A DNA stretch of 64,000 nucleotides from Candidatus Omnitrophota bacterium (GTDB lineage Bacteria > Omnitrophota > Gorgyraeia > Pluralincolimonadales > Pluralincolimonadaceae), in the NCBI GenBank assembly GCA_028716565.1, contig JAQUPL010000001.1:473476-537475 (forward strand). The letters are read 5' to 3'. The notes beneath the pieces are model-generated. The model saw only the letters and a list, made by a program, of their open reading frames with translations. It had not been told where the DNA came from and searched no databases. The position numbers and the translations under genes are program-made. How positions within the stretch are numbered: the first letter of the stretch is position 1; the number at the start of each line of letters is the position of its first letter. Below are positions 1-16,824 of the stretch, one piece after another.

Positions 1-2139
1 TTCTAAGACATTGTCCAGGCTGCCCCTGAAGACGGGTATTTTACCGGACCTGCAATGGTCATAGACGGTATCATCGGAGGTATCTTCCGAAGTGGCGACG
101 AGCACATTGTCTACCGCGCAGGTTTTGCAGCGCCTGTATACGTATTCAACCAGGGGCACCCCCCCCAGGAGGGACATTACCTTGCCCGGGAACCGGCTGG
201 AGCTCATCCTGGCCTGGATGATTATCGCGCTCGACCGGCCTTTATCATCCCCTATCCCGTTTTTATCTATATATCTCTTCGCCGCGAAGTCCAGTATTTC
301 CCGCGAATTGCCCGTCTTGAGGCTCATCTCCATCACATCCTGTATAAATCTTCCCAGCCTTTTATCCGCATTGAAGTCGCCGAAATGGTTGAACAGCCGC
401 CGCCATTTAGAGAAATCCCCGATCGAACTGTCGCCTTTGCTCGCCCGGATGATGGCATCTTCCATTCCGTCAAGCGTCTTGAAAATGAACTTCTGGCCGG
501 GATCGCCGTAAAACGGGTGCTTCGTCCACCCGGAACAATCCCAATGCAGCACCCTGTTCCCGTGCGCCCCCGCTACGATGCCCGCGGAATTCAGGCCGAA
601 ACAGACCGACAAATCGGTAAGTGCCGCGGCAGTCGCAGGGGATAACCGGTTATCCAGGAAAAAGACCCTGTCCGTTCCCATGAGCGACCGGAATCTGCGC
701 ACTATATCTTTACCGCCGGGCAGAGCCGAGAGGCTGTCGATATCGCCGTTCTTGCTCTTCACGACCGCTCCCCATGACGGGTTCTTTTCAAGAAGGCCCA
801 GGAGAAGCAGGTAGAAGCGCGAAAGCGACAAAGGCGTTTGATGGACATTATGCGCGGCGCTTGAGTCGAATACGGCAAATGTGAATTCGAGGTCTTTCAG
901 CCGGCCCGTTATCCCGCCCGGATCGGCTGCATCTCTGCATATCCACATCCCGGAAGGAAGCCAATAATCACATACCCCCTCCTTCACGGGAAGGAAATCG
1001 TCGAATATCCTGCCCCATTCAAAAAATACGTTGTACGGGAAAAGGTGCGACGGGGTCATCCGGAACGGATAATTGGACCAGTGGAACCCGAGCATTATGC
1101 CCCCTGCCGATCCCATGGCCGCCGCCTGCGCTTCCTGTTTCCAGGACGTGTCCTGGTGTTGGATAAGTATCTTCACCTTAAATTTATTAAAATACGCCGC
1201 ATAGCACGCATTCCAAAAAGCATATTCAAAATCGAACATTCTCAACCAAAACGGCCGGCCATCCGGCTTTACCAGGTCTTTTATAAGCGCGGCTATCGCA
1301 GGGGTGCCTATATCCGACGCTACCGCCCCCAAATGCGCGTCGGCCCACAACTCGCCCCTCTCCTCTATCTCCCCGGTTATTTCATCATTGACAGGGGTAT
1401 CTCCCCTGTCCAGGTAATAAACGATGCCGAAAAGCGATTTATCCACGTTATTTTTCCAGAATGCTAGATCGATGGCACTTTTTTGGTCGTATTCTATCCA
1501 GACCGACGGCCTTATATCGGTAATATTGGACCTGGGAGCGACAGGCATTACTCTTGCCTTCACTGCGCTCTTTACCAGGCTTAATATCGTCCTGGCGCGC
1601 TGCGCATACTCAAACATCCCGCCGGATTCCTTGATTGCAAAACCTCTTTCTTCGTAAAGGCGGCGCAGCATTTCGTTCATAGGATGCCGTTCAAATCTTA
1701 AGATATGGTCTTTATCCCTCATAAGCGCTGCTTTCGACCTGGCAATGACCGCAAATACTATTTTGCCGCGCAAGGACTCCGATATATAACACTTGATCGC
1801 GTTCTTCAACCTTAAAGGCCTGCCGTCGGCATAGGTTTTAACGGCCCTGTCGCCGCACAGGAGCATATCCTCGTTCACCTCATATGCAAGCGTCTCTCCG
1901 TCCGGGCTTTCCTTTTCCAGGGACAGGCTGACGGGAAATACGTTAAGGCCGACCCTGAACCGTTCTGCCAAAGCAAGGATAAAGCGGGCCGGGGCGGAGA
2001 CCGAACGATCTCCGTAATATATTACGCGGCCGGAAAAAGGCCGCGATAAGCCTGCCGCGACCACATCCGGGGCGCCCAATTTTTCCAGCCACAAGGTCTT
2101 GGGACCTTTTTTTTGTGCTGTTGCGCTGCCTGCGGTCAT
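1..2139 (-). CDS. Open-ended fusion ORF (>=713 codons, 3' end beyond window start). About 640 aa N-terminal domain of unknown function, possibly a glycosyltransferase-like domain. Joined in frame to the N-terminal part of a CMP-sugar cytidylyltransferase domain (SpsF/NeuA/PseF family).
   Basis: I checked the minus frame 2139 to 1 triplet by triplet for in-frame TTA/CTA/TCA on the plus strand and found none. ATG at 2139..2137 overlaps the upstream stop as ATGA. The last about 75 codons read AIIIQARMSSSRFPGKV...VATSEDTSDD...IPVFRGSLDNVLE, the classic N-terminus of the CTP_transf_3 cytidylyltransferases. The ORF is not in the supplied track because it has no stop inside the window. Confidence 0.45.
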   Translation of the reverse strand, partial: MTAGSATAQKKGPKTLWLEKLGAPDVVAAGLSRPFSGRVIYYGDRSVSAPARFILALAERFRVGLNVFPVSLSLEKESPDGETLAYEVNEDMLLCGDRAVKTYADGRPLRLKNAIKCYISESLRGKIVFAVIARSKAALMRDKDHILRFERHPMNEMLRRLYEERGFAIKESGGMFEYAQRARTILSLVKSAVKARVMPVAPRSNITDIRPSVWIEYDQKSAIDLAFWKNNVDKSLFGIVYYLDRGDTPVNDEITGEIEERGELWADAHLGAVASDIGTPAIAALIKDLVKPDGRPFWLRMFDFEYAFWNACYAAYFNKFKVKILIQHQDTSWKQEAQAAAMGSAGGIMLGFHWSNYPFRMTPSHLFPYNVFFEWGRIFDDFLPVKEGVCDYWLPSGMWICRDAADPGGITGRLKDLEFTFAVFDSSAAHNVHQTPLSLSRFYLLLLGLLEKNPSWGAVVKSKNGDIDSLSALPGGKDIVRRFRSLMGTDRVFFLDNRLSPATAAALTDLSVCFGLNSAGIVAGAHGNRVLHWDCSGWTKHPFYGDPGQKFIFKTLDGMEDAIIRASKGDSSIGDFSKWRRLFNHFGDFNADKRLGRFIQDVMEMSLKTGNSREILDFAAKRYIDKNGIGDDKGRSSAIIIQARMSSSRFPGKVMSLLGGVPLVEYVYRRCKTCAVDNVLVATSEDTSDDTVYDHCRSGKIPVFRGSLDNVLE
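159..166 (-). repeat. G8 homopolymer tract (C8 on plus strand) inside the cytidylyltransferase-domain coding sequence (codons SLLGGVPL). Candidate slipped-strand site.
   Basis: Plus strand reads cacc cccccc agg, a run of 8 C at 159..166. It lies in frame inside the 1..2139 ORF. Confidence 0.5.
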
Positions 2140-3581
2140 CTCGCGGTCCGGCCCCTCGTTTTTAAATACGTCTCTTCATAATCCTCGATGCGTTTCAAGT
2201 CGCCCTTGACCATCAACTCCCGCAATCCAAGCAGTTCGACCGTATTGAAATTTTTTGAGATATTGCAGGTGATATCCTTGGCGTCGCCCAGGCTCAGCAG
2301 GAAAAGCTGCAGGTCCCCGCCATATTGTTTAAGTATCAGGTCTTTATACGAGTAATACCATTCCGATCCCGGGTACGGCGTCGCAAAAAAAGGATTCGAC
2401 CGTATCCCTAATTTTTTCCAGGCAAGGACGTCAGCCTTGATGCTTTCAAAGGATTCATCCGGGAAACCTATGATCTGGTTCGGGATGGGCCGTATCCCCG
2501 CATCCATAGTCATCGTAACCGCCCTTGAGTTTATCCTGCTGTTTGAACCTTTGCCGGCGGACAAAAGGACCTCGTCCGAAAAAGACTCTAACCCGTAATC
2601 AAGGTGGGAGCAGCCGAGGCCCTTAAGTTTCCTGAGGATATTTTCGTTTACCATCGCGGCATGCGCGGTAGCGCCCCAGTGTATGCCGCGGCAGGATTTA
2701 AGCCATCTCCGCGAAAACTCATCGAACCAGTCTTTGTTCCTGCACAACGCGACAAAATTTTCATCATAAAATGAGACGAAGTCTATCCCGAACCTTTTTT
2801 TGGCCGATCTTACCAGGTCGACGACGTATTCCGGGCTGTGGTGCCTTACCTTACGGCGGCCGGTTATTAAGACATCGCGCCTGCCGTTCGACTCAACGGT
2901 AGACAGCTCACCACTCAACCCTAAATGAAAACAGTATTTGCACCTGAACGGGCAGCCGTAACTCGCCATGACACCGATATGGCGTTTGGCAAGCATCGAT
3001 TCTTCGCTCAAAAGCAGGCTGCTGTTCTGGAAATAGATATCTAAAGGAAAAATATCCCATGCCGGGAACGGCAGGGAATCGACGTCCTCCAAAAGCTCCC
3101 TCTCGCGGTTCAATACCAGGTCGCCGTCCGGGCTGCGATAGATTATCCCTTTTACCCGCGACCAATCGTCCTCTCCCGCGTCGACCGACTTCAGTATCTC
3201 CATCAGCGTAATATACGCCTCCCCGACGATACCTATGTCCACCTCCGGAAGGAATCCCATGACCTCATGCGGTATCGGGGTGATGAATCCCCCTCCGGCG
3301 ACGATAAGGGAGTTTTTAGCCGCCTTACGCGCGATAGAAACGGTTTTCTTGATAAAGCCGTAAGTCGTGACCAGTCCCCCGGTGGCAACCACGTCCCACC
3401 TATCCGCCCGCAATACCGCGTAGATCTCTTTATCCGACGGCCTCCAGGCATTGGCATCAAAGACCTGGACCTTGTGCCCTTCGCGCATAGCCAATGCCGC
3501 CAGCTGGGCCAGCCCGTAAGGAACATGTGCGGGCTTTCCGCTTTCGCGTATTACAGGATTAATGAACAGGACCTTGGCCAT
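2136..3581 (-). CDS. B12-binding domain radical SAM protein (cobalamin-dependent rSAM, class B-like)
   Basis: Probable start MAKVLFINPV at 3581, two nt after the upstream stop. The N-terminal region resembles a cobalamin-binding domain. CPFRCKYC gives the CxxxCxxC radical SAM cluster motif. The track ORF 2136..3731 has a 50-aa N-terminal extension that overlaps the upstream gene. Confidence 0.75.
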   Translation of the reverse strand: MAKVLFINPVIRESGKPAHVPYGLAQLAALAMREGHKVQVFDANAWRPSDKEIYAVLRADRWDVVATGGLVTTYGFIKKTVSIARKAAKNSLIVAGGGFITPIPHEVMGFLPEVDIGIVGEAYITLMEILKSVDAGEDDWSRVKGIIYRSPDGDLVLNRERELLEDVDSLPFPAWDIFPLDIYFQNSSLLLSEESMLAKRHIGVMASYGCPFRCKYCFHLGLSGELSTVESNGRRDVLITGRRKVRHHSPEYVVDLVRSAKKRFGIDFVSFYDENFVALCRNKDWFDEFSRRWLKSCRGIHWGATAHAAMVNENILRKLKGLGCSHLDYGLESFSDEVLLSAGKGSNSRINSRAVTMTMDAGIRPIPNQIIGFPDESFESIKADVLAWKKLGIRSNPFFATPYPGSEWYYSYKDLILKQYGGDLQLFLLSLGDAKDITCNISKNFNTVELLGLRELMVKGDLKRIEDYEETYLKTRGRTAR

Positions 3582-3583
3582 TT

Positions 3584-4588
3584 TCAGGACTTTCTCTTTG
3601 CGAACATATTTAAGACCTCGGACAAGCCGGAAAATATTACGCCCTTGCCGAACAGGATGCCGCCTTCGGTGCAATTGTACGTCCTGCAATTCGCCACTTT
3701 CGCCATCTCCAGGAAACTTTGCGTATACCAATAATAGGCGGGATCGGTAAAACAGGATTGTTTAAGGTGAGGGTTATGCACCTTTATCAATCCGCGCTCC
3801 GGCTCTCCCGGGAATAACTCTTTAAGCACGTCGTAATACTGCGTTTTATCTACGGTAGTGCCGGGAGGATACGAGAGGTCCATGCCCACCACGACCACCT
3901 CGGGGCTTGCCAATACGGCGTGCGAAAATACCCACGCCGACGTGCCGCAGTTGCCTCCCGTGACCATACAAGGCGTCTTGGTTATCTTATGTATCTTCCT
4001 CGAATAGCTTCCGGGATCGTCAAAATCGTCGTAAAGCGGGTTCCACCAGTAAAGCTGCATTCCGGCTTCAAGGCAGCGCCTGGTGATCTCCGGGCTCACG
4101 CTGGTCGAGATGATCACTTTTATCCCGGGTCCGTGGAGGTTTACCAGACGTATCATTTCATCGTTACGCTCGATCTCGTCCTTGTTCAGCGCCGGATCGA
4201 GGTCCTGCCTCCTGAAGTAGTCATCATCGGGCCTCTTGGAGAGGTGCGTATCCCCGAACCAGCGGATGATACGGTGCGGATGCGGGTCCACCGTAATGAC
4301 ATAATCCGGGACGATGCCGTTACGCAAACAGTGCCCCAGCGTCCCGTCCACGGCCACGATGTGCCCTTTAAAATTGCTCTCCTTAATGGCCTTCAGCGAT
4401 CTCCTGCTATGCAGGCTCGGGCCGGCAGAGATGACCAGCGCCGGTTTTGGAGGGACGGGACCGATATCCCTGATGGTCTGTTTTATATACGCGGAGTTTA
4501 ACTTCGCGTGCTTAAGGCCGATCTCCCCGGTCTTCCTTAAAGTGGCCATGGAGATCAGTTCCAATTCTTTCTTATTTAGCTTTTTCAT
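3584..4588 (-). CDS. Maf-like / DUF115 (6-hydroxymethylpterin diphosphokinase MptE-like fold) protein, a putative nonulosonic-acid glycosyltransferase-type accessory factor
   Basis: 334 aa. Motifs PALVISAGPSL...HIVAVDGTL...IVPDYVITVDPHP resemble the DUF115/MAF_flag10 core. It sits between CMP-sugar synthetase and rSAM genes. Confidence 0.45.
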   Translation of the reverse strand: MKKLNKKELELISMATLRKTGEIGLKHAKLNSAYIKQTIRDIGPVPPKPALVISAGPSLHSRRSLKAIKESNFKGHIVAVDGTLGHCLRNGIVPDYVITVDPHPHRIIRWFGDTHLSKRPDDDYFRRQDLDPALNKDEIERNDEMIRLVNLHGPGIKVIISTSVSPEITRRCLEAGMQLYWWNPLYDDFDDPGSYSRKIHKITKTPCMVTGGNCGTSAWVFSHAVLASPEVVVVGMDLSYPPGTTVDKTQYYDVLKELFPGEPERGLIKVHNPHLKQSCFTDPAYYWYTQSFLEMAKVANCRTYNCTEGGILFGKGVIFSGLSEVLNMFAKRKS

Positions 4589-4781
4589 CCGCGTCCCAGA
4601 TGAACTTGTTCGATTTCATCACAAATGCTATGCTCCCCCCGAGCTTTTCCGTCGCCTTCTCCTCGAAAATACCGGTATGGCTGCGGGCAGGTTTTTTGCC
4701 GCTCTTAGATTTTTTGGTTTTTATCTTATAATTCCCGCTCAAGAACCTGTTATTCATCGATAACGACCTCCTTTTTATCAA
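4572..4781 (-). CDS. Small lysine-rich ORF (69 aa) spanning the 160-bp gap between the NeuA-like and Maf-like genes. It may be non-coding.
   Basis: An open frame across a relatively AT-rich intergenic stretch. It has no recognisable domain and its ends overlap both flanking genes. Confidence 0.15.
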   Translation of the reverse strand: MIKRRSLSMNNRFLSGNYKIKTKKSKSGKKPARSHTGIFEEKATEKLGGSIAFVMKSNKFIWDADEKAK

Positions 4782-5484
4782 GCAAGAACTCGGCGAATAT
4801 CAGGTCGATAGGCTCATCGATATCGACCGATGAAAGATCTGACATCACATGCGCCCCGGTATTTTTCGAGATAATGACCCCTTCCTCGAAAAGGGCCTGC
4901 CTCCTTGTAGCGTAAGCAGCGCCGTTAGGGATAACTAGTTTTGGCAGGGACTGGAAGACGCCTCTTTCCCCTTCCATCTTTCCTCCCAGTAGGAGCTCGG
5001 CGCGGCCCCCGTCCTTGACCCCGAACATCCACTCCGGCCTTTCTTTCACCTGTCTCGACGTAAATGCCGACATCATCCCCTCATCCTTGAGCAGCAGGTC
5101 GACGCAGGCATCTATGTCGCAAGCGCGGCAAAACGGCGTGGTCGGCTGCATGGTCACCGCAATATCTATTTTTTTAGATTCCTGCGATTCCACGAATTCA
5201 ACGGCATGCTTTGTGACCCACTCCGAAGGACAATCTTCCGCAAGGTTTTGAGGCCTCACGAAAGGCGCTTCAGCGCCGCATTCCAAGGCTATCTTCTTGA
5301 TCTCCGGGTGGTCGGTGGAGACGATCACCCTCCTAAGGCAGTTACTTCCCAAGGCGGCCCTGATCATATAGGAGACTAAAGGCTTTCCTCCTAAAAGCGC
5401 GATGTTCTTTAGCGGTATCCTCTTCGACCCTCCGCGCGCGTGGATCACCCCGATAATGTTAAGCCCGTTGTCTTTTTTTACCAT
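4750..5484 (-). CDS. N-acylneuraminate (nonulosonate) cytidylyltransferase, CMP-sugar synthetase (NeuA/LegF/PseF family)
   Basis: 244 aa with the motif IIGVIHARGGSKRIPLKNI, the CTP_transf_3 N-terminal signature. Confidence 0.8.
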   Translation of the reverse strand: MVKKDNGLNIIGVIHARGGSKRIPLKNIALLGGKPLVSYMIRAALGSNCLRRVIVSTDHPEIKKIALECGAEAPFVRPQNLAEDCPSEWVTKHAVEFVESQESKKIDIAVTMQPTTPFCRACDIDACVDLLLKDEGMMSAFTSRQVKERPEWMFGVKDGGRAELLLGGKMEGERGVFQSLPKLVIPNGAAYATRRQALFEEGVIISKNTGAHVMSDLSSVDIDEPIDLIFAEFLLDKKEVVIDE

Positions 5485-6848
5485 TTGTACCCCAGGTCTG
5501 TTTTTACGGATCTTCCCCTTAATTCCGCTAAATTACCGAAAATCTTCTTGAACGCGGCGACCACATCCCTCATGTCATCCCTCCCGTTAGGGCGGTTGAT
5601 ATGATAGAACCATATGAATTTTTCTTTTATCAGGTCTTCCGCAACGGGACAATCGCCTCTCTTGTATTCCCTTTTGGCCTTGTACAAATGGCATGACCAT
5701 GGGCAATGGCCCTTACCGAAGGCGATCTTCCTCAGGAAAATAGGATTATCATACATGGTCTTTAAATATCCGGATCCCGCAGGTATCCCCTCGGCTTTCA
5801 GGGCCGCCAACACCTTGGCCCTTTCTACGCCGGTCTTTGCCTTGTCATAGATCAGGGGGAAGACATGGGGTATCACCCCCTCCTGAAGCTCTACGGCGCT
5901 CAAGCCCGGCAGGCCTTTTAATCCCTTGCTCAAGGAGCGGTAATTACGCAACCTTTCGGAGTTGTTCCTGTCCAATTTTTTAAGCTGGGCTATCCCCACG
6001 GCTGCGGTTAATTCCGTCATCCTGAAATTCATCCCGACAATATTGCTCAATGACCCTTCGTCCCAAGAGATATCCGGCACCGATTCGCCGTGGTTGCGTA
6101 TAAGGCGCGCCTTCCTGGCCAGCCCGGGATCATTTGTTATTACCATCCCTCCCTCGCCGGTCGTGATATTTTTCGTCTCCTGGAAACTGAAAACGCCGAG
6201 ATCGCCGATAGTCCCGACAAACCTGTTCTTATATTTTGTCCCGGGCGCCTGGGCGCAATCCTCGATGATCGCCAGGCGGTGCTTCCTGGCAATGCGCAAA
6301 ATGGCGTCCATATCGGCCGGGTTCCCCAATAGGTGCACCGCCAGGATCGCTTTTGTCCTTTTAGTTACCGCCTTCTCGACACACCTGGGATCAAGGCAAA
6401 AGTTTTTCGGGTCCACATCTACAAATACCGGTATGGAATTAAACATAAGGATGCTCAAGGCTGTGGCATTGAAAGACAGGCACGTGGTAATGACCTCATC
6501 CCCGGGCCCGATCCCGGCGGCCCCTAACGCGGTAGAAAGGCCTGAAGTGGCGGAGTTGACGGAGACGGCATACTTGACCTTGAGTTTCCCGGCGAAATCG
6601 GCCTCGAACCTCCTGACCATCTTACCCCCTAGGAAAGAAAAATACTGGCCCCGGTAATTGAGCGCGTCTTTTGACGGCATGACAAGCAGCTTCCCTATGT
6701 CCCGGGTCGGGCTGCCCATGAAACGGGAGAGCTCTTTATTCTTCATCACCTCCCTGACATAACGCCATTCGTCCCCGTCGATCACCACGGAATTATGGAA
6801 TGGCTTCTTGCGCACGGGCTTGCCGCCGGTTAACGCTAAACAAGACAT
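5478..6848 (-). CDS. DegT/DnrJ/EryC1/StrS family PLP-dependent sugar aminotransferase (long form with C-terminal extension)
   Basis: 456 aa. Motifs KVKYAVSVNSATSGL, AIIEDCAQAPG and a PLP-lysine region FSFQETKNITTGEGG. Confidence 0.8.
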   Translation of the reverse strand: MSCLALTGGKPVRKKPFHNSVVIDGDEWRYVREVMKNKELSRFMGSPTRDIGKLLVMPSKDALNYRGQYFSFLGGKMVRRFEADFAGKLKVKYAVSVNSATSGLSTALGAAGIGPGDEVITTCLSFNATALSILMFNSIPVFVDVDPKNFCLDPRCVEKAVTKRTKAILAVHLLGNPADMDAILRIARKHRLAIIEDCAQAPGTKYKNRFVGTIGDLGVFSFQETKNITTGEGGMVITNDPGLARKARLIRNHGESVPDISWDEGSLSNIVGMNFRMTELTAAVGIAQLKKLDRNNSERLRNYRSLSKGLKGLPGLSAVELQEGVIPHVFPLIYDKAKTGVERAKVLAALKAEGIPAGSGYLKTMYDNPIFLRKIAFGKGHCPWSCHLYKAKREYKRGDCPVAEDLIKEKFIWFYHINRPNGRDDMRDVVAAFKKIFGNLAELRGRSVKTDLGYKW

Positions 6849-6852
6849 GACC

Positions 6853-7707
6853 TTATTGACCTGCCTTCCTGGCGATTATGACCAGCCTGTCGGCTTTGCG
6901 GATGTCCAGTGACGTAAGCCGCAAAAATAACCAATTATATATCCTGGATACGAACCCGGTTAAGGCGGGTATCAGCCCCAGGCCGTAAGGCAACAGGTCC
7001 GCGCTGTTGATCCCCATGACCTTGACGACCCGGAAACCCGTCTTTCCCAGGCAATATCTTAAAGAATCCGCCGTGGGGATCCCCTGTACGTAATCCCCGT
7101 AACGCTCAAAACACGAATATTTATTATAGTAGCGCGACTTGCCCTGATGGCATTTAATGGCCAAAAATCCGTCCTTTTCCAGCATACCGTTTATTTTTTC
7201 CAGGCTCTCTCTCAGGTCGGTGAAATAGTAGCAGCTTTCCAATACCGAGATCAAAGAATATTTTCTCCGCATCAATTCCCCGGGGATATCGTCCGGGAAA
7301 CTGCCCGTATATACTTTCAGACCCTGTTCCCGCGCGCATTCGGCCGCCTTTTCCTGCGGCTCCAGCCCGTACGCGTCGAAGCCGAGTCCTTCCAATACAT
7401 GGCAAAACCCGCCGGTAAAAGTACCTATATCAAGCGCGGCGCCTTTGTCCCTGACTGTCTTCCCGATAAGGACGGCCGCCAGGTCCGGTCTCTGCTTTCT
7501 TGGGTCCGCGCAACAGATATCCGCCCCGGTCTCCCCAGCGCGCGAAAGATATTCCCCGCATTCATTCCCGTCTGCGCGCGGATAGGGATATAAGGTGCCG
7601 CATTCATCGCATATCCTGATATCCCTTTTCTGCCCGTCGCGCAGTCCCTGGTCCTTTTTATACAACGCGGCGCTCCGGTGATGGCAGAACGGGCAGTCGT
7701 AAAGCAT
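6853..7707 (-). CDS. Class I SAM-dependent methyltransferase with N-terminal Cys4 zinc-ribbon
   Basis: 284 aa. CPFCHH...CDECG zinc ribbon. LDIGTFTGGF glycine-rich SAM motif. Confidence 0.65.
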   Translation of the reverse strand: MLYDCPFCHHRSAALYKKDQGLRDGQKRDIRICDECGTLYPYPRADGNECGEYLSRAGETGADICCADPRKQRPDLAAVLIGKTVRDKGAALDIGTFTGGFCHVLEGLGFDAYGLEPQEKAAECAREQGLKVYTGSFPDDIPGELMRRKYSLISVLESCYYFTDLRESLEKINGMLEKDGFLAIKCHQGKSRYYNKYSCFERYGDYVQGIPTADSLRYCLGKTGFRVVKVMGINSADLLPYGLGLIPALTGFVSRIYNWLFLRLTSLDIRKADRLVIIARKAGQ

Positions 7708-7708
7708 G

Positions 7709-8701: not shown

Positions 8702-8731
8702 TGTTTTGCTTTAACGCCCTTTTCTCTGGTC

Positions 8732-9397: not shown

Positions 9398-9410
9398 GGT
9401 CTGCCTCTCA

Positions 9411-10565
9411 TTAATAGGTCATCTTTTTTTGCAACAGGCGTTTTCCCTGCGCTGCCTTTTCGAGCTCATCGGCGATCTTTTCGGCGGCCCTGCCGCTGCC
9501 GTAAGGATTGCGGCAGTTCCTTACCTTCCTTAAGAAGGCCTTGTCGGAAACGGCCTTGCGCAACGCTTCCAGGATAGCCCTCTTTTTGTAGGGCACATCG
9601 ATCACGTTCTCCGCCCTGAGCCTCCCCTGCTGGCGGCTGCCGATATTTATACACGCAACTTTAAAGACCGGCGTTTCCATGATGCCGCTGCTGGAATTTC
9701 CCGCTACCGCAGAGGCGATCCTTAATATCCCGAAATAATTCTTCCACCCCAGGCTTTTCCTTATCCTGAAGTGCGGCACCCGGGCATACTCCTTTATCGC
9801 CTTGATCATCCGGTCGCCGCCCGCGTCGTTGCAAGGATAGGTAATTACCGTCTGGCGGCCGAATTCTTTCAGCGCCTCCAGGCTCTCCTTGATCTGTCCG
9901 TAGGCAAGAGCGCTTTCGGTGGTCACGGGATGCTGGGTGAATACTATCACCTGCTTGCCGGGATCGATCTTGAGTTCACGGGCCAGTTCCTGCGGCCCGG
10001 CGTATTCGCCCGATAAATAATTGTCGATGGCGGTCGAACCGACATTAAAAACCCTCCACTTTTCCTCCCCCAGGCCCAATACCCTAAGGTATGAATCCTG
10101 GTTAGAAACGAAGTGCAGGTGCGAAAGCTTGGTGATGCTGTGCCTTACCGAATCATCGAGATTTCCGCCCTGGGAAAGATCACCGCCGAAAAGATGAGCG
10201 ATCGGAATGTTAGAGTAAAAAGCCGCTATCGCCATCGCGTATGTCTCGTAGCGGTCCCCGGCCAAGACAAGGATATCCGGACGCATCGCGCCAAGCAGCC
10301 GCGCGCCTTTCTTTACCAATTCGGCGAAGACGGGAAGCACGTTATCAGGCGTGCCTGGCTGGGATAGATAAACATTTTTGGCCTTAAGCCTGTCCGGATA
10401 TTCGATCTCGGAGTGGGTATTTCCGAACCTTTCCGATAAATGGCTGCCCGAGATGATCAGCCTGACATCAAAATTCCGTCTCGATAAGAGTTCTTTGACC
10501 AAAGGCCGCAAGAGACCGTATTCGGCGCGGTTTCCTGTAAAAAGCGCGATTTTTTTCTTATGCAT
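9411..10565 (-). CDS. UDP-N-acetylglucosamine 2-epimerase (hydrolysing), NeuC/LegG family
   Basis: 384 aa. ALFTGNRAEYGLL...HLFGGD...VGNSSSG motifs typical of NeuC-type hydrolysing 2-epimerases. Confidence 0.8.
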   Translation of the reverse strand: MHKKKIALFTGNRAEYGLLRPLVKELLSRRNFDVRLIISGSHLSERFGNTHSEIEYPDRLKAKNVYLSQPGTPDNVLPVFAELVKKGARLLGAMRPDILVLAGDRYETYAMAIAAFYSNIPIAHLFGGDLSQGGNLDDSVRHSITKLSHLHFVSNQDSYLRVLGLGEEKWRVFNVGSTAIDNYLSGEYAGPQELARELKIDPGKQVIVFTQHPVTTESALAYGQIKESLEALKEFGRQTVITYPCNDAGGDRMIKAIKEYARVPHFRIRKSLGWKNYFGILRIASAVAGNSSSGIMETPVFKVACINIGSRQQGRLRAENVIDVPYKKRAILEALRKAVSDKAFLRKVRNCRNPYGSGRAAEKIADELEKAAQGKRLLQKKMTY

Positions 10566-11349
10566 GCTTATTCCCGCGGACCACTACCATCTCCTTGGAA
10601 ATATCCCATGAGCCAAGACGGACCGAATCAATTTTTTCCCTGCTGGGATCGATGCCGGTCTTCTCGCGGGTTTCCTCAAAAAGCAGCGTGGCAGTATAAT
10701 AACGGATAAATTCGCTTTTATCCGGGAACTTCAATTTGCAGGGAATGATCTCCTTTTCCGCCGCCCCGAAAATATTTTTCACAGCCGGATAGAATTCCTT
10801 TTCGAGGCGTGAACTCCTCAAGGCCGCCTTTTCATCCATTGCGTAATCCAAGCCAAAAACCTTCTTATTGAACTCATACAGCTCTTTGGCGTTATTTTCC
10901 GTAGGGCCGATGAGAAAAACTTCACCGCCGGGTTTCAAGACTCCCTTGATGTCATTAATGACCGCTTCCGCGTCATCCGCGTAATAGATGGAGAAAGCGG
11001 CGATCACACGATCAAAGGTATTTTCAAGGAAAGGAAGCCTGTTGTTCATGTCCCACTGCAGAAGCAGCGGCGTAAAACCGGCGGCCGCTTTCCGGGCCTG
11101 TAAAAGCAGTTCTCTTGACTTGTCGACACCGACTATCCCTCCCCCGCCATTAAGTTTTTTTAAATAGGCCGGGAATAAGTTCCCGTTCCCGCAGCCGATG
11201 TCAAGGATCAAGCCGCCTTTCGCGCCCGGCAAACGGGTCTCCAGCCAATCCTCGAGGCTAAAGCTGGAGAAACGCTTGTGTGCTTCTATCCTGGCGCTTA
11301 AATTTTTCTGGCTTTCGTTATAGCCGAGGCCTTGTGCCGTTTTCGTCAT
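10558..11349 (-). CDS. Class I SAM-dependent methyltransferase
   Basis: 263 aa. ILDIGCGNGNL SAM-binding motif. Overlaps neighbouring genes by 8 and 4 nt. Confidence 0.7.
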   Translation of the reverse strand: MTKTAQGLGYNESQKNLSARIEAHKRFSSFSLEDWLETRLPGAKGGLILDIGCGNGNLFPAYLKKLNGGGGIVGVDKSRELLLQARKAAAGFTPLLLQWDMNNRLPFLENTFDRVIAAFSIYYADDAEAVINDIKGVLKPGGEVFLIGPTENNAKELYEFNKKVFGLDYAMDEKAALRSSRLEKEFYPAVKNIFGAAEKEIIPCKLKFPDKSEFIRYYTATLLFEETREKTGIDPSREKIDSVRLGSWDISKEMVVVRGNKHA

Positions 11350-12350
11350 AAGGTCACCAGCTCATCTTTTTTGAAATTCTTATTAGCCGGCCTGCCAAGC
11401 AGCTTTTCATAGATCACCGGACTCAAGCCGTTGCCGGGCCTTTTTACCGTTATGTTATGGACGGTAAACCTGTCTCCCTTCGCTATGTCCGCGGCAGCTA
11501 CGATGCTTTTCCTGGCAATCTTCCTGTTATTTAATTCGGAGGGCGCAGGTCTTTTGACCCCGTCGCCGAGGGCCGTTTCTATATTGCGGACCGCCTTGAC
11601 CATGGCCCTGAATTCATCCGGTTCAAGGGATGCCTTATGGTCGGGACCGGGCAGGTCCCTGTCCAAAGTAAAATGCTTTTCGATCACAGCCGCGCCTAAT
11701 GCGGCTGCGGCGATAGACACCTCGATGCCCTGCGTATGGTCTGAATAACCCACCTGCACCCGTAGCCTGTTCTTGAGCGTAAGCATGGCGCGCAAATTTA
11801 CTTCATCCATGGGAGCGGGATATTCGGTGGTGCAATGCAGTACGGTGATATCCTCAGGCCTTGTCCCGGAACCGGTAAGGATCCCCATGGCAAAACGCAC
11901 TTCTTTCAGGTCGGACATCCCCGTGGAAAGGATGACCTTTCTTTTAAGCCTCCCGATCTTCCTTAGATACGGCAGGTTGTTTATCTCCCCGGAAGGCACC
12001 TTGAATATCTTCAGTCCGAGGCCCGCCAGGAAATCCACGCTCTTCAGGTCGAACGGCGAAGAAAGAAAGATCACCTTCTTCTTCCGGCAACGCCGCAGTA
12101 ATTCCTTATGGGCGTCGGGGCCAAGCTCCAGCTTTTTTATCATCTCCAGCTGGCTCCCGGTATTGCCCGTGGCTGCCTTCTGGTAAGCGGCCTTAGGCGC
12201 GTACGTGGAGACCAGGGATTCCGCGCTGAATGTCTGGAATTTGACTGCGTCTGCGCCTGCATCTGCCGCGGCATCCACCATCCTCATCGCGACCTTTAGC
12301 GAACCGTTGTGGTTGACCCCGGCTTCGGCAATAATGAATATTTTATGCAT
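11346..12350 (-). CDS. N-acetylneuraminate synthase family enzyme (NeuB/LegI/PseI)
   Basis: 334 aa. FIIAEAGVNHNGS start, the TIM-barrel of the NeuB family, and a C-terminal SAF/antifreeze-like domain. Confidence 0.85.
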   Translation of the reverse strand: MHKIFIIAEAGVNHNGSLKVAMRMVDAAADAGADAVKFQTFSAESLVSTYAPKAAYQKAATGNTGSQLEMIKKLELGPDAHKELLRRCRKKKVIFLSSPFDLKSVDFLAGLGLKIFKVPSGEINNLPYLRKIGRLKRKVILSTGMSDLKEVRFAMGILTGSGTRPEDITVLHCTTEYPAPMDEVNLRAMLTLKNRLRVQVGYSDHTQGIEVSIAAAALGAAVIEKHFTLDRDLPGPDHKASLEPDEFRAMVKAVRNIETALGDGVKRPAPSELNNRKIARKSIVAAADIAKGDRFTVHNITVKRPGNGLSPVIYEKLLGRPANKNFKKDELVTL

Positions 12351-12990
12351 TTTGTTTCATTTCTTTGCAAGGGTTGCCGTAAGCGACCACGCCTTTGCGT
12401 ATGTCGCCGGTGACGACACTGCCCGCGCCTACTACCGTCATTTCCCCTATCTTTACATTCTGGATCACAATGCTTCCCGTGCCGATATGGGAATGGCTGC
12501 CAATGCTTACGCCGCCGCTTAGCAACGCCCCGGGTGAAAGATGCACAAAATCGCCGATCTTGCAGTCATGTTCTACGATAGCACCCGTATTAAGTATGCA
12601 GTTGTCGCCTATACGGGAGCCTGCGTTAACGATCACCCCGGGAGCGATAAAATTGCCCTGCCCAAGGACAGAGCGGGAAGATACCAGCGCATACGGGCTG
12701 ACCAGGTTTGGGAATACGAACCCGGATCTCCTCGCGAGGTTATAGAGTTTAACGCGCAAACGGGTATCACCGACGCTTCCTGCTGAAATAAAACAGTGTT
12801 TTACGCCTTTTCCGGAGAATCGCGGCAGGTCGGTATCGGAGCCGCTTACCGGCACCCCGAAGACCTTCTCCCCGATGCGCTGCTTTACGTCAATTATCCC
12901 GGCGACTTCATATTCTTTAGCGGACAGCAGCAGGTCCAAGACTACCTTGCAATGCCCTCCGGCGCCTATTAGCAATATTTTTTTCTTCAT
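12343..12990 (-). CDS. Sugar O/N-acetyltransferase, NeuD/PglD/LegH family (left-handed beta-helix)
   Basis: 215 aa. N-terminal Rossmann-like motif KILLIGAGGH. C-terminal hexapeptide repeats. Confidence 0.75.
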   Translation of the reverse strand: MKKKILLIGAGGHCKVVLDLLLSAKEYEVAGIIDVKQRIGEKVFGVPVSGSDTDLPRFSGKGVKHCFISAGSVGDTRLRVKLYNLARRSGFVFPNLVSPYALVSSRSVLGQGNFIAPGVIVNAGSRIGDNCILNTGAIVEHDCKIGDFVHLSPGALLSGGVSIGSHSHIGTGSIVIQNVKIGEMTVVGAGSVVTGDIRKGVVAYGNPCKEMKQNA

Positions 12991-12996
12991 ATCAAG

Positions 12997-14067
12997 TTAA
13001 GCCTCGAACTTCTTCAGCATCTCCTGCAAGGCCTCAAACTGCCCCATATCCAGCCACGATTTTTCAGAGACCGGATAGACCCCTATCTTTTCCTTCTTCT
13101 CGATATAGTCCCCGATAAGGTCGGTTATATTGTAAAACCGGTTCTTGGGGATATCACCAAGGACCGAGGCGTCCAAAAGATACATGCCTGTATTTACCAG
13201 GAAGTCATATTCGGGTTTTTCCCTGATGTCCCTGAGGGCCCCGCCTATCCCGATATCGCAGACGCCGTAAGGGATCGTAAAATTCTTCATCGAGCTCACG
13301 AGGGTGATCTTGTTCTTCTTCTCGTTGTGGAACCTCAGTATATCGGTGTAATCCGCCTCGATGAGTATGTCGCAATTGCTCACGAAAAAAGTCTTCTTTA
13401 TCCTGTTCTTCAGCAAGTGGAGGCTTCCTGCGGTGCCCAGGGGTTTGCTTTCAAGGATATAGTTAATCTTGTATTTATGCTCGAAATCACTGAAATACGC
13501 CTTGATCATGTTCGATTTGTAATTCAGCGAAAGGTAGAAATCGTCGCAGCCGTAATCAAAGAACCTGTCGATGATGATCTCTATGATCGGTTTATCGCCG
13601 ATAGGCATCAACGGCTTAGGCAGGACTTTGGTGAACGGATGGAGGCGCACCCCTTCTCCTCCCGCCATGACCACTACCGGGAGCTTCAGTGACTTGTGGT
13701 TCTTCGGTTTGGCCTCAAAAAGGTCCACCCATGAGATGGAGGCGACGACCCTTCTAGTCCCGTCGACCACCGGCAAGCATTCGACTTGGCGCTGGATCAT
13801 CAGGTCCTTCGCGCCTTCCCTGGAAAAACCCTCCTTCAGGACCAGGGGACGGCAGTTCATCGCTTTCTCAAGGCTTTCGCCGAGGCCTTTCCCCTTCAGG
13901 ATCCATCTCCGGATATCGCCGTCGGTGATCGTACCCGCGATCTTCTTCCGGTCATCCACGACGATAAGCGTCTTCTCCCCCATGGCATCCATCTGCTTCA
14001 ATGCCTGCTTGATGCTGCATTTGGGACTTACCAAGACTTTCTTCAATCTTTCCGTCATATCAGTCAC
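12997..14067 (-). CDS. CBS-domain pair fused to a sugar-phosphate nucleotidyltransferase (PtmE-like NTP-transferase)
   Basis: 356 aa. Tandem CBS repeats are followed by VVMAGGEGVRLHPFTKVLPKPL, the NTP_transferase G-rich loop. The architecture matches the GlcN-1-P guanylyltransferase of the GDP-route legionaminic acid pathway. Confidence 0.7.
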   Translation of the reverse strand: MTDMTERLKKVLVSPKCSIKQALKQMDAMGEKTLIVVDDRKKIAGTITDGDIRRWILKGKGLGESLEKAMNCRPLVLKEGFSREGAKDLMIQRQVECLPVVDGTRRVVASISWVDLFEAKPKNHKSLKLPVVVMAGGEGVRLHPFTKVLPKPLMPIGDKPIIEIIIDRFFDYGCDDFYLSLNYKSNMIKAYFSDFEHKYKINYILESKPLGTAGSLHLLKNRIKKTFFVSNCDILIEADYTDILRFHNEKKNKITLVSSMKNFTIPYGVCDIGIGGALRDIREKPEYDFLVNTGMYLLDASVLGDIPKNRFYNITDLIGDYIEKKEKIGVYPVSEKSWLDMGQFEALQEMLKKFEA

Positions 14068-15226
14068 CCCTCCCTAGGCCCCGGATAGCTGAGGTTACCC
14101 GCCTTATCTGTCTCAAATCGAGGTTTGTGCTGCACGGCAGGTTTAGTACGCGCCTCCAATACCGCGGCGCCTTTTCGATTTTATATGCCTGGTTCCTGAG
14201 ATACGGCCTCTGGAGGTGGTTCAGGTACCATACCGGCCTTGTCTGTATGCCCTTCGCCAGCAGGTGCCTCATCGTCTTGTCCCTGTCCGCGCCGAATAGC
14301 TCCTTTTCGATGACCAGCGAATAGAACCAGTAATTCGGCGCCGTGCCTTCCGGGACCCCCAACATCCCGGCCCCTTTGACCCCCTTTAGCAGTTTTTTAT
14401 ATACCGCGTAATTGTCCTTCTTCACCCTTATGAAACCTTTCAACCGTTCGAGCTGCGCCAGGCCGACAGCGGCCTGTAAATTGGTCAGGCGGAAATTGTA
14501 GCCGACCTCATTATGGAGATGTTTTACAGGGTCATCCTTGGCTTGTTCCGTCAGGTACTTTCCTTTTTTCGCCAACAGCCCGTTATCGGTCACGATCATC
14601 CCTCCGCCGCCGGTGGTTATTATCTTGTTCCCGTTAAACGAATATACGCCGATGTCGGAAACTGTCCCCGTGAACCTGCCCTTATAAGCGCCGGAGGTGT
14701 AATATGCCCCCAGGCTTTCGGTCGCGTCCTCGATGACCTTAAGGCGGTACTTCCTGGCGATCTTCATTAGTTCTTCCATGTCGCAGGGGTTCCCAAAGAT
14801 ATGGACCGGGATAATCGCCTTGACCACCCTTCCGGTCTTTTTGTTCCTTAACCCTGCTTTAGTGGCCGTGCATTCCTTAGCGCAAAATTCCCGGACTTTT
14901 ACGCAATCGATATTCAAATAATCGTCGCAGTCCATAAAGACCGGTTCCGCGCCGAGGTATTTGACGACATTGACCGGCGCGATAAATGTAAGCGTCGGCA
15001 CGATCACCTCATCGTCCCTGCCGGCTCCGCAAAGGGCAAGCGCGATATGAAGGCCCGCTGTGCCGTTTACGCAGGCGACCGCATGTTTGGCTTTTACGTA
15101 GCGGCAGACGGCGTCCTCGAAATCCTTTACAAAACCTCCGGAAGAAGATACCCAGTTGGTCTCGACGCACTTCTTGAGGTACTGCAGTTCCCTGCCGCTC
15201 AGGTTTGGGACGGAAAGTGGGATCAT
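14060..15226 (-). CDS. DegT/DnrJ/EryC1/StrS family sugar aminotransferase (LegC/PglE-like)
   Basis: 388 aa. HAVACVNGTAGL, VIEDATESLG, and SFNGNKIITTGGGG containing the PLP lysine. Confidence 0.8.
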   Translation of the reverse strand: MIPLSVPNLSGRELQYLKKCVETNWVSSSGGFVKDFEDAVCRYVKAKHAVACVNGTAGLHIALALCGAGRDDEVIVPTLTFIAPVNVVKYLGAEPVFMDCDDYLNIDCVKVREFCAKECTATKAGLRNKKTGRVVKAIIPVHIFGNPCDMEELMKIARKYRLKVIEDATESLGAYYTSGAYKGRFTGTVSDIGVYSFNGNKIITTGGGGMIVTDNGLLAKKGKYLTEQAKDDPVKHLHNEVGYNFRLTNLQAAVGLAQLERLKGFIRVKKDNYAVYKKLLKGVKGAGMLGVPEGTAPNYWFYSLVIEKELFGADRDKTMRHLLAKGIQTRPVWYLNHLQRPYLRNQAYKIEKAPRYWRRVLNLPCSTNLDLRQIRRVTSAIRGLGRGD

Positions 15227-15239
15227 TTTTTAAGGGTCA

Positions 15240-16220
15240 CTATACGTTATAGATTCCGGATTTATAGATATCTTTATTTTCCTTAAACCACGCTATCGTC
15301 TTCAAAAGGCCTTTTTCCAGGCTGTATTTCGGCGACCAGCCCAACAAGCGCCGGGCCTTGGCATTGTCGGCCAACAACCGTTCGACTTCGCTTTTTTCCG
15401 GTCTTTTCCTTTCAAGGGCCGAATCGATCGTTACGTCGCGGTGAAGGGACAGCGAGATCAGCCGCGCCAAGTCCCCTATTGAGATTTCCGAGTTGCTGCC
15501 GAGATTGATGACCTCGCCTACGGCTCTCCGGCATTCTCCCGCACGGATGAACCCGTCAACCGTGTCTTCCACGTATGTCAAGTCGCGGGTCGGGGCCAGG
15601 GCACCGAGCTTTATCTTCTTGCCGCCGTAAAGTATCTGCGTGATGATAGTCGGGATCACCGCGCGCGCCGATTGCCTCGGGCCGTAGGTATTGAACGGCC
15701 GGACGACCGCGACCGGAAGGTCGAACGAACGGTAAAATGACAAGGCCAGGAGGTCGGCCGCGGATTTAGTCGCCGCATATGGCGATTGGGGGTTTATTGG
15801 GTGGTTTTCCGTGATCGGGACAAACTGCGCCGTCCCGTAGATCTCGCTTGTGGACGTGTGGACTACCTTTTTTACGTCCGAATCCTTCGCGGCCTGTAAA
15901 ATATTCAAAGACCCCCTGATATTGGTCTCGACGTATGCCTCCGGGGAATGGTATGAATAAGGTATCCCGATCAGGGCGGCAAGATGGAAAACAGTCTCGA
16001 CATCGCGCATTGCATCCCGGACAATGTCGGCATCCCGTATATCGCCGGAGATTATCTCTATGCGGTTTTTACACCGTGAGGACTCCAGCCACCCCCAGGA
16101 ATTCCTCGAATTGTAATGGACGAATGCTTTTACTTTATACCCGGAAGCGGATAATTTTTCGGTTAAATGGCTCCCGATAAAACCCCCGGCGCCCGTCACC
16201 AAAACTTTTTTCTTGGTCAT
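15240..16220 (-). CDS. NAD-dependent nucleotide-sugar 4,6-dehydratase/epimerase (extended SDR, LegB/PseB-like)
   Basis: 326 aa. VLVTGAGGFIGSHL. YxxxK region PYAATKSAAD. STSEIYG. Confidence 0.8.
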   Translation of the reverse strand: MTKKKVLVTGAGGFIGSHLTEKLSASGYKVKAFVHYNSRNSWGWLESSRCKNRIEIISGDIRDADIVRDAMRDVETVFHLAALIGIPYSYHSPEAYVETNIRGSLNILQAAKDSDVKKVVHTSTSEIYGTAQFVPITENHPINPQSPYAATKSAADLLALSFYRSFDLPVAVVRPFNTYGPRQSARAVIPTIITQILYGGKKIKLGALAPTRDLTYVEDTVDGFIRAGECRRAVGEVINLGSNSEISIGDLARLISLSLHRDVTIDSALERKRPEKSEVERLLADNAKARRLLGWSPKYSLEKGLLKTIAWFKENKDIYKSGIYNV

Positions 16221-16311
16221 CTCTTTGCTTTCTGAGGACAGAGCTTCGCCCCTTTGGTTACATCCCTGTAACTTTTTCTCATGTTTTTGTTTTTTAAAAA
16301 TTGCCCTGCTT

Positions 16312-16821
16312 TTACAGCCTCTCTACCACGTTGTTGTCGACCTCGGCAGCCAGAGACCTGCCGAGAAGGTCCACCGAGATGATCAGCGTCCCCTTCTTGT
16401 CATTGAACTTCTCGAATATTCCGATAGCGCCCCTTAACGGCCCGTCGACCACGACGATCCGCTCGCCGACGTTCAGGTAAGGATGCGGCAACGGGTCGAT
16501 CCCCGACTCCACTATCTTTCTTACGTTATCGATCTGCTCTACGGGGATGGCCAGGGGGGCCACTTTAGTCCCTAAAATATTGACTACGCCCTCCGTCTTC
16601 TTGACCTCAAGCCAATCCGTTGCCGTAGGAGCGCACTCGACAAAAAGATATCCCGGGAAAAGCGGCCTCGCCACTTTTATCTTCCTGTCTTTCCTCCTGC
16701 TCCATTTGAGGATAGTCGGATAGAAGGTCTTTATCGATCTCTTGTTCAGGAGGTAACTAACCTTGAACTCGTAGTTCGACCGCGTCCTTACCGCATACCA
16801 ATTCTGGGCTATAGCTATCAT
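16312..16821 (-). CDS. NusG-family specialised transcription antiterminator (RfaH/UpxY/LoaP-like paralog)
   Basis: 169 aa. NGN domain WYAVRTRSNYEFKV...FPGYLFV. C-terminal KOW GERIVVVDGPLRGAIGIF. It is the first gene upstream of the biosynthetic operon. Confidence 0.75.
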   Translation of the reverse strand: MIAIAQNWYAVRTRSNYEFKVSYLLNKRSIKTFYPTILKWSRRKDRKIKVARPLFPGYLFVECAPTATDWLEVKKTEGVVNILGTKVAPLAIPVEQIDNVRKIVESGIDPLPHPYLNVGERIVVVDGPLRGAIGIFEKFNDKKGTLIISVDLLGRSLAAEVDNNVVERL

Positions 16822-16824
16822 ATT

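Follow-up and report, generated by a model that had tools for sequence, protein, structure and literature searches.

A legionaminic-type core in a minus-strand operon

The window analysed here is a stretch of 64,000 nucleotides (nt) from a Candidatus Omnitrophota bacterium (assembly GCA_028716565.1, contig JAQUPL010000001.1, positions 473,476 to 537,475). Its first part is occupied by an operon that combines genes for a legionaminic-type (Leg) nonulosonic acid with a second group of genes, which recurs in other bacteria. This recurrent module is made of six genes, encoding a Gfo/Idh/MocA oxidoreductase (Gfo), a long DegT-family aminotransferase, a cytidine monophosphate (CMP)-nonulosonate synthetase, a conserved protein of 61 amino acids (aa), a stand-alone DUF115/MptE-like domain protein designated 'mini-Maf', and a cobalamin (B12)-binding radical S-adenosylmethionine (SAM) enzyme. 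From position 1 up to about 33.6 kb, every window gene is on the minus strand, to which all operon coordinates given below refer. Because the genes overlap or abut (overlaps, or gaps of at most 30 nt, with the sole exception of 91 nt ahead of legB), window positions 1-17445 and an extension of no less than 6.4 kb past the window start form a single operon. The extension was read from its source contig, L001, on which 600 window bases aligned with zero mismatches; exact matches of the window were found on contigs of two 'Candidatus Omnitrophica bacterium' metagenome-assembled genomes (MAGs; GCA_028714115.1 and GCA_028711645.1).

Domains were called by Pfam and NCBIfam scans of the window proteins, scores being compared to the curated cut-offs. 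The original prediction had read positions 1-16821 as a locus for a 5,7-diamino-nonulosonic acid with its full core, and all the domains that it named were present there on the minus strand. LegB, an NAD-dependent 4,6-dehydratase (15240-16220), scored 491.4 with TIGR04180 (cut-off 475), compared to 76.4 with the PseB model for the pseudaminic (Pse) counterpart (cut-off 408). The LegC aminotransferase (14060-15226) scored 464.6 with TIGR04181 (cut-off 420), compared to 230.8 with the PseC model (cut-off 423.5). The LegH/NeuD-type N-acetyltransferase (12343-12990; Pfam PglD_N and Hexapep), the LegI-type nonulosonate synthase (11346-12350) and the LegG-type hydrolysing NDP-sugar 2-epimerase (9411-10565) passed TIGR03570 (221.3 compared to 160.8), TIGR03569, that is, NeuB_NnaB (500.7 compared to 399.65), and TIGR03568, that is, NeuC_NnaA (392 compared to 235.9), respectively; the PseI model gave 299.6 on the synthase, below its cut-off of 340. 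As these NeuD, NeuB and NeuC models do not separate Leg from sialic acid (Neu) enzymes, the synthase and the epimerase were compared with solved structures. The closest solved relatives of the synthase were PseI (8H2C) and Bacillus subtilis SpsE (1VLI), at about 210 bits, compared to 180 for NeuB/SiaC. For the epimerase, the closest was the Acinetobacter baumannii GDP/UDP-diNAcBac hydrolysing 2-epimerase (5XVS/5ZLR), at 210 bits, compared to 164 for GNE. These affinities favour Leg/Pse enzymes over sialic acid enzymes.

The CMP-nonulosonate synthetase (4750-5484, CTP_transf_3) is the only complete one in the operon. Its best model was PseF (137.1, cut-off 205.7), and the KdsB models, which stand for the 3-deoxy-D-manno-octulosonic acid pathway, scored far lower. 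A sugar-1-phosphate nucleotidyltransferase with a CBS pair and an NTP_transferase domain in Pfam (CBS-NTase, 12997-14067) completes the set. It had been called PtmE-like and taken to point to a GDP-linked route; the architecture was indeed found, while the specificity can only be surmised, as no NCBIfam cut-off was reached (the mannose-1-phosphate guanylyltransferase model gave 100.5, compared to a cut-off of 440). Since LegB and LegC pass their curated cut-offs while the Pse models fail on them, since the epimerase and the synthase stand nearest to Leg/Pse enzymes, with KdsB models far lower, and since the guanylyltransferase model of a GDP-mannose pathway is so far from its cut-off, a complete legionaminic-type 5,7-diamino-nonulosonate core is well supported by the predicted proteins. 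That the route is GDP-linked may be reasoned as for Tannerella forsythia, where a GDP-linked Leg route was argued from a PtmE-like gene (PMC5378307).

In itself this core is ordinary and already known biology. All seven functions of the Campylobacter jejuni cassette (LegB, C, H, G, I, F and PtmE) and of the T. forsythia cassette (BFO_1063-1074) have co-linear counterparts here, those of LegF and PtmE being putative. The TIGR04180 and TIGR04181 models were built around this same seven-gene cassette. Two differences stand out: five additional genes separate the CMP-synthetase gene, a member of the accessory module, from the others, and the setting is a polysaccharide operon with an UpxY-type antiterminator, without equivalents of PtmA, PtmF or PgmL in the locus.

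The accessory module and its recurrence

The most conserved part of the module consists of tightly packed genes. The 61-aa protein, overlooked in the original prediction, is encoded at 4572-4757, between the CMP-synthetase and mini-Maf genes. Its open reading frame (ORF) is preceded, at 8 nt from the ATG, by the Shine-Dalgarno sequence AAGGAGG, and overlaps both the CMP-synthetase stop and the mini-Maf start (by 17 nt in the latter case). Members of the family share a Gly-Asn-[Tyr/Phe] motif near the N-terminus, a variable charged linker and the motif FE..A...LGGSI[A/C]FV.K....W; the window copy reads GNY, then LGGSIAFVMK, then W, and the Gly-Ser pair is invariant across members. Neither a Pfam or NCBIfam match nor a signal peptide was found for it. 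A word-indexed homologue search yielded 7 relatives only, while a profile search against 1.84 billion representative proteins yielded 137 clusters (best E 5e-21), nearly all of them stand-alone proteins of 45-120 aa. Could the ORF be an artefact of the mini-Maf start? This was ruled out by the conservation of the protein across phyla, by its own Shine-Dalgarno sequence and by the many loci where the two genes do not overlap.

Mini-Maf (3584-4588) is a protein of 334 aa with the central Maf_flag10/DUF115 domain, of sialyltransferase-like fold, and the DUF115 assignment of the original prediction was thus confirmed. Maf enzymes are O-nonulosonyl transferases whose acceptors are Ser/Thr residues of proteins. 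The Magnetospirillum magneticum Maf (PDB 5MU5) and the C. jejuni Maf/PseD proteins are about twice the size of mini-Maf, which does not have their full-length architecture (about 600-670 aa): 240 of its residues align to a Maf chain of 632 residues, at 12% identity, the terminal parts of that chain have no counterpart, and the PseD model gave 31.6, compared to a cut-off of 670. The invariant residues D101 and D237 of mini-Maf fall on residues 324 and 415 of the M. magneticum protein (profile hidden Markov model alignment, with 13.2 bits for its first stretch and a weak -2.6 for its second), which are acidic and were reported to be critical for activity. It is because of this correspondence that we use the label mini-Maf, and the protein therefore appears to be a CMP-sugar-binding catalytic domain minus the terminal Maf parts. 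Another difference from Maf enzymes lies in the context, which is not flagellar: mini-Maf is paired instead with the B12 radical SAM enzyme and the 61-aa protein. There were 969 homologues at E <=1e-5; the best 120 of these were about 270-357 aa long, with 53-84% identity, and came from Omnitrophota, Nitrospirota, Planctomycetota and others. Across phyla, identity was 45-84%, which is unusually high for a glycosyltransferase.

The cobalamin-binding radical SAM enzyme (2136-3581; PF02310, 44.9 compared to 32.1; PF04055, 59.8 compared to 29.5) has its ATG 2 nt past the mini-Maf stop. The cysteines of its CxxxCxxC motif (C210, C214 and C217) were invariant in 24 orthologues, with a mean column identity of 68%. 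All its relationships to described enzymes were distant. The best NCBIfam models were BchE (96, cut-off 481), HpnJ (79, cut-off 578) and ApyD (70, cut-off 750), with rSAM_ocin_1 at 48 bits, and the best PDB profile matches, all weak, were CysS (1.3e-8), TokK (1.5e-5) and TsrM (1e-4). A second B12-binding radical SAM gene lies at 18464-19963, with a SAM methyltransferase gene on each side (17562-20595, minus strand). The two radical SAM genes are not duplicates of each other, as the identity between their products is 25%.

The remaining two members of the module are Gfo (7709-8701, Pfam), an NAD(P) oxidoreductase, and the long DegT-family aminotransferase of 456 aa (5478-6848; Pfam DegT, 334 bits). 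The second-best NCBIfam match of Gfo was an archaeal uridine diphosphate N-acetylglucosamine (UDP-GlcNAc) 3-dehydrogenase model, at 60 bits compared to 450. The PseC and LegC models both scored below their cut-offs on the long DegT protein, whose best PDB match was 8GYH, WbpE and related aminotransferases being also among the matches. The two genes had been described as adjacent; in fact the gene of a methyltransferase with a zinc ribbon intervenes.

When GTDB species were scanned, each represented by a single genome, 56 loci with mini-Maf were obtained, which were then searched with the operon proteins by tblastn and submitted to an unbiased clustering of their ORFs. They were distributed over Nitrospirota of the genus Nitrospira (21), Dehalococcoidia of the Chloroflexota (11), Rokubacteria of the Methylomirabilota (6), Planctomycetota (4), Deltaproteobacteria (3), Elusimicrobia (3), and one each in Omnitrophota, Acidobacteria, Yanofskybacteria of the candidate phyla radiation (CPR), Latescibacterota, Roseospira and Nitrospinaceae; two were unclassified. 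By tblastn, an orthologue of the B12 radical SAM enzyme (45-68% identity) was present in 50 of the 56 loci and directly downstream of mini-Maf in 45. The 61-aa protein was detected in 48 (E down to 8e-17), as was the CMP-synthetase, and the NeuB-like and NeuC-like proteins were detected in 37 and 32, respectively. The clustering ranked the same genes first: DUF115 led with 53 loci, ahead of the small protein (50), the radical SAM enzyme (47) and the CMP-synthetase (46). Orthologues of the long DegT protein (45-70% identity) were found in about 34 related loci, and Gfo, upstream of it, in 28-35. Among the conserved neighbours there was no flagellin or flagellar, pilin, S-layer, protease, exporter or peptide-recognition (RRE) family.

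Gene order is conserved as well, as a synteny search proposed with the original prediction brought out. The succession LegB-LegC-LegH-LegI-LegG-CBS-NTase-Gfo-DegT-CMP synthetase-small ORF-DUF115-radical SAM is also found in five other loci (L005, L008, L010, L015 and L017), and the CBS-NTase keeps its cassette position in 15-17. With a gene order repeated in dozens of genomes, chance is not an issue. In Nitrospira, a compact cassette has the order regulator-Gfo-DegT-CMP synthetase-small ORF-DUF115-radical SAM-NeuB-NeuC-short-chain dehydrogenase/reductase (SDR)-PseB-like dehydratase. It is made of nonulosonate genes and the module only, and the upstream route with which the module is combined there is a different one; the MAG of Nitrospira lenta that was scanned carries it. 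L040, on a 1.3-Mb contig of a Dehalococcoidia, is the one long-contig exception to the association with nonulosonate genes.

Variant arrangements were observed around the small ORF. At L055, where the mini-Maf and radical SAM genes are apart, a copy of it is directly upstream of the radical SAM gene, and at L056 it is placed between the mini-Maf and radical SAM genes. At L061 (206-1438, P0284), the 61-aa protein and mini-Maf form an in-frame fusion of 410 aa, and the orthologous radical SAM gene comes next; this fusion could be real or could result from an assembly frameshift.

No curated family covers mini-Maf, the radical SAM enzyme or the 61-aa protein. In the literature searched, whose coverage was partial, we found no description of a module of DUF115, B12 radical SAM enzyme and small protein beside nonulosonate genes, which is absence of evidence only.

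Accessory genes and surroundings of the operon

Interleaved with the core and the module are genes that are found in few related loci. A PIG-L family de-N-acetylase (8732-9397; Pfam PIG-L, 88.2 bits) has counterparts in 8 of the 56, the methyltransferase with a zinc ribbon (6853-7707; Methyltransf_23, with a CPFC...CDEC motif of the type CxxC...CxxC in the translation) in 6-10, and a class I SAM methyltransferase (10558-11349; Pfam Methyltransf_25/11) in 1. These three are lineage-variable decorators. An unusually large tailoring set had been proposed for this locus; the set is present, yet it is not peculiar to this genome, since its core is a widespread cassette to which the PIG-L and methyltransferase genes are added sporadically.

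The second cytidylyltransferase domain that had been noticed in a fusion protein was also confirmed. The protein is 866 aa long and is cut by the window edge, its first 713 residues being encoded at 1-2139; a GT-B-fold domain of about 637 aa is followed by CTP_transf_3 from residue 638. The GT-B domain had no sequence-level similarity to any solved protein (a profile against PDB sequences gave noise only) and no match in the Pfam copy used, which does not contain PF27878, a family listed for some of its homologues. We found 21 homologues of this domain, mostly stand-alone. The fused cytidylyltransferase is not a general trait, as the fusion occurs only in this MAG. Among described enzymes, the nearest counterparts are GT-B transferases of the TagF/TarL and WaaA types, which use CDP- or CMP-activated donors.

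The operon reaches beyond both ends of the range originally described. Past the window start (L001 14589-21005), the remainder of the fusion gene is followed by genes for a SPASM radical SAM enzyme of 288 aa, a third DegT protein (ArnB/PseC-like), an NDP-sugar dehydrogenase-like protein, an asparagine-synthase-type amidotransferase (AsnB, 389 bits compared to 267), HisH and a WbuZ/HisF-like protein. The last of these is partial, being truncated at the end of the locus, which accounts for its score under the cut-off. HisH and WbuZ recur in 8-9 related loci. Amidotransferases of the WbuX/WbuY/WbuZ and PseA types are tied to acetamidino sugars, such as the Leg5Am7Ac of Legionella pneumophila. The AsnB, HisH and WbuZ-like set suggests that such amidated sugars are made here too, with the difference from WbuX systems that the amidotransferase is an asparagine-synthase homologue and not a WbuX PP-loop protein.

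At the other end, two genes absent from the original prediction come first. The first operon gene (16825-17445) encodes a MarR-type winged-helix regulator (Pfam HTH_24/MarR_2), which scored 68.6 bits with MarR_EPS TIGR04176, below the cut-off of 88; its C-terminal domain is Rossmann-like, with weak matches to the Methyltransf_14 C-terminal domain and to PglD_N. Relatives of the regulator were found in 18 of the 56 loci, and a protein with this same two-domain architecture heads the Nitrospira cassette (L022 5642-6400), so that the regulator seems to travel with the module. The second gene (16312-16821) encodes a NusG-like transcription antiterminator of the UpxY family (NF033644, 105.4, cut-off 100; Pfam NusG). 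A promoter-like site at 17518-17490 (minus strand) is consistent with the operon start; in the promoter and terminator scan, such sites were not enriched over shuffled controls. An Rfam scan of the window gave zero matches, and no riboswitch or leader RNA was evident.

The operon is located inside a surface-polysaccharide region. Between 17.5 and 33.6 kb, upstream of it, lie genes for methyltransferases, a Wzy_C-type protein, an asparagine synthase, a GT2 glycosyltransferase, SDRs and a DegT protein, together with two UDP-sugar dehydrogenases and rmlABCD-like genes. At 31582-32049 (minus strand), an ORF of 155 aa matches both the RmlC (dTDP-sugar isomerase) and Polysacc_synt_C models and overlaps neighbouring ORFs. 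At 36658-39587 (minus strand), two adjoining GAF-GGDEF diguanylate cyclase genes, beside genes for a ROK-family kinase and an OstA-like protein of 752 aa, form the upstream edge of the polysaccharide region. The remaining 30 kb or so of the window is housekeeping (dnaK/dnaJ/grpE/hrcA, miaA, rRNA methylases and others). It includes, at 49944-52115 (minus strand), a gene for a protein of 723 aa with a MiaB/RimO-like UPF0004 domain and radical SAM core, TPR repeats and a C-terminal peptidoglycan-binding SPOR domain; we know of no methylthiotransferase-like enzyme with this architecture. The G+C content across the window ranges from 0.48 to 0.56, with a value of about 52%, so that the genome is not GC-rich as had been thought.

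Possible products of the module

The reading that we prefer, and hold to be probable, is that the operon makes a modified legionaminic acid and uses it in building a surface polysaccharide, the small protein being a partner or scaffold. With the regulator and the UpxY-type antiterminator at the head of the operon, the core would yield CMP-Leg5Ac7Ac via GDP-linked intermediates, the sugar expected of such a cassette being the D-glycero-D-galacto 5,7-diamino-3,5,7,9-tetradeoxynonulosonate. The pair of Gfo and the long DegT protein might then put an amine in place of a secondary hydroxyl still left on the nonulosonate (at C4 or C8), as GenD2 and GenS2 do, the PIG-L deacetylase and the methyltransferases could re-decorate the nitrogens, and the B12 radical SAM enzyme could alkylate an unactivated carbon, as GenD1 does. 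Mini-Maf, which appears to retain a sialyltransferase-like CMP-sugar site and both acidic residues, would use the CMP-sugar together with the co-translated 61-aa protein. The latter may be an acceptor or scaffold, or else a subunit coupling mini-Maf to the radical SAM enzyme. For placing the sugar into the polysaccharide, the GT-B fusion protein would be the better candidate.

The model for these steps is gentamicin biosynthesis, where the tailoring of A2 to X2 involves, on one sugar, the dehydrogenase GenD2, the aminotransferase GenS2, the N-methyltransferase GenN and the cobalamin radical SAM C-methyltransferase GenD1 (PMC4340712). The order is from hydroxyl to carbonyl to amine, followed by N-methylation and C-methylation (PMC4340712). 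The same four enzyme classes are encoded together here. The analogy is mechanistic only: there is no close sequence relationship to the gentamicin enzymes, and the substrate would be a nine-carbon ulosonic acid. By this analogy, the product may be C-methylated.

Several observations weigh against the preferred reading. The activities, substrates and product of the operon enzymes are all predicted from protein sequence. The CBS-NTase is taken to be PtmE-like from its architecture and position, and no equivalents of PtmA, PtmF and PgmL were seen in the locus. Neither Gfo nor the long DegT protein has a close characterised relative, and their substrate could be a hexose intermediate or a different sugar; in the Nitrospira cassette the long DegT protein is the sole aminotransferase seen within 10 kb, and may be a core rather than a tailoring enzyme. 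The radical SAM enzyme reached no curated or characterised methylase family and is far from all characterised ones. Methylation would be just the commonest outcome for its class, given that BchE and HpnJ, among its best matches, are non-methylating. The second stretch of the alignment between mini-Maf and Maf is weak, and the small-protein/mini-Maf fusion is known from a single metagenomic contig of 1963 bp, which makes it weak evidence. Finally, at L040 (9811-12521) the trio of small protein, mini-Maf and radical SAM genes has no NeuB-like gene in the 10 kb to each side of it.

A second explanation, which overlaps with the first and which we regard as possible though distinctly less probable, is centred on the small protein. 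Mini-Maf would use the CMP-nonulosonate to O-glycosylate the 61-aa protein, for instance on the invariant Ser of LGGSIAFV, and the radical SAM enzyme would modify the peptide or its sugar, the result being a dedicated glycoprotein, a glycopeptide or a carrier-bound intermediate instead of a unit for assembling a polysaccharide. Since Maf enzymes act on Ser/Thr of proteins, the apparent retention in mini-Maf of equivalents of both critical acidic residues, without the terminal Maf parts, is in keeping with this, and so are the invariant Gly-Ser of the small protein and the rank of the CMP-synthetase as fourth most conserved neighbour. A small ORF beside a radical SAM gene is also the usual layout for peptides that are made by the ribosome and modified after translation (RiPPs); the small ORF is conserved beside this gene in 48-50 loci and stays with it at L055 and L056, and the enzyme has weak similarity to the RiPP B12 radical SAM models ApyD and rSAM_ocin_1. 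Against a modified peptide, however, the neighbour clustering revealed no conserved protease, exporter or RRE gene nearby, and the small protein has no signal peptide. Both of its ends are conserved and its middle is variable, unlike the pattern of a leader and core. The Tyr of the GNY motif is replaced by Phe in some members, so it is not a hydroxyl acceptor. Translational coupling and the one fusion fit a stoichiometric subunit better than a substrate that is turned over.

Alternatively, the PIG-L, Gfo, DegT and methyltransferase genes might make another amino sugar for this polysaccharide, such as a 3-amino-3-deoxy-N-acetylhexosamine of the kind made by WbpB/WbpE or GnnA/GnnB, and would simply share a location with the Leg genes. 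Pairs of an oxidoreductase and a DegT protein are best known from UDP-GlcNAc3N-type pathways. The WbpE-type structures among the matches of the long DegT protein and the rank of the UDP-GlcNAc 3-dehydrogenase model for Gfo agree with this proposal, as do the several further sugar pathways of the wider region and the presence of PIG-L and methyltransferases in few related loci. We consider it unlikely. The NCBIfam scores in question are far under their cut-offs, Gfo and the long DegT protein travel with the CMP-synthetase, mini-Maf and radical SAM genes in about 28-35 loci in a fixed order, and the Nitrospira cassette contains neither another sugar pathway nor a glycosyltransferase between these genes.

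A flagellin-glycosylation island of the Campylobacter ptm/leg/maf type, in which the DUF115 protein would be the flagellin nonulosonyl transferase, is very improbable: the resemblance noted in the original prediction holds for gene content (LegB, LegC, LegH, LegG, LegI, LegF, PtmE and a Maf-domain protein are shared with the C. jejuni locus) and fails for the setting, as there are no flagellar, flagellin, pilin or S-layer genes in the 64-kb window and no flagellar genes in the conserved neighbourhood, the 334-aa mini-Maf corresponds to only part of a Maf chain and falls far short of the PseD cut-off, and carriers include Dehalococcoidia and a CPR bacterium, groups that to our knowledge are generally not flagellated.

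Returning to the modified legionaminic acid that we favour, what would the module mean more broadly? Nonulosonic acids are displayed on bacterial surfaces, where they influence how phages, immune systems and other cells recognise the bacteria, and their environmental diversity is known by mass spectrometry, mostly without assigned genes. For some bacteria, mass spectrometry has given hints of 'triply acetylated higher-carbon ulosonic acids' (PMC8157484). These are the kind of product that the module could explain, although no connection between them and carriers of the module was found. We tentatively suggest, as a bolder and doubtful proposal, that the four-gene core (CMP-synthetase, 61-aa protein, mini-Maf and the radical SAM enzyme), to which Gfo and the long DegT protein are usually added, is an undescribed system of more than ten bacterial lineages, serving either to make nonulosonic acids of a new class or to attach nonulosonate to a dedicated small protein. 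In the first case, the product might be a 'higher-carbon' ulosonic acid that is triamino and/or C-methylated; in the second, the small protein would be the scaffold or the product. If true, on either account mini-Maf would be the first enzyme of the Maf type whose function has nothing to do with flagella.

The 'odd' neighbours of the Leg genes thus turn out to be a conserved portable cassette, found in Nitrospira nitrite oxidisers, Dehalococcoidia, Methylomirabilota, Planctomycetota, Omnitrophota and CPR bacteria, that is, in ecologically important and mostly uncultured lineages. Because a named species, N. lenta, carries the cassette, the predictions are directly testable in carriers that can be grown. 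The cassette provides a genetic handle on unexplained nonulosonate variants, on a B12 radical SAM enzyme that acts on a sugar or a small protein, and on a Maf-type transferase outside flagellin glycosylation.

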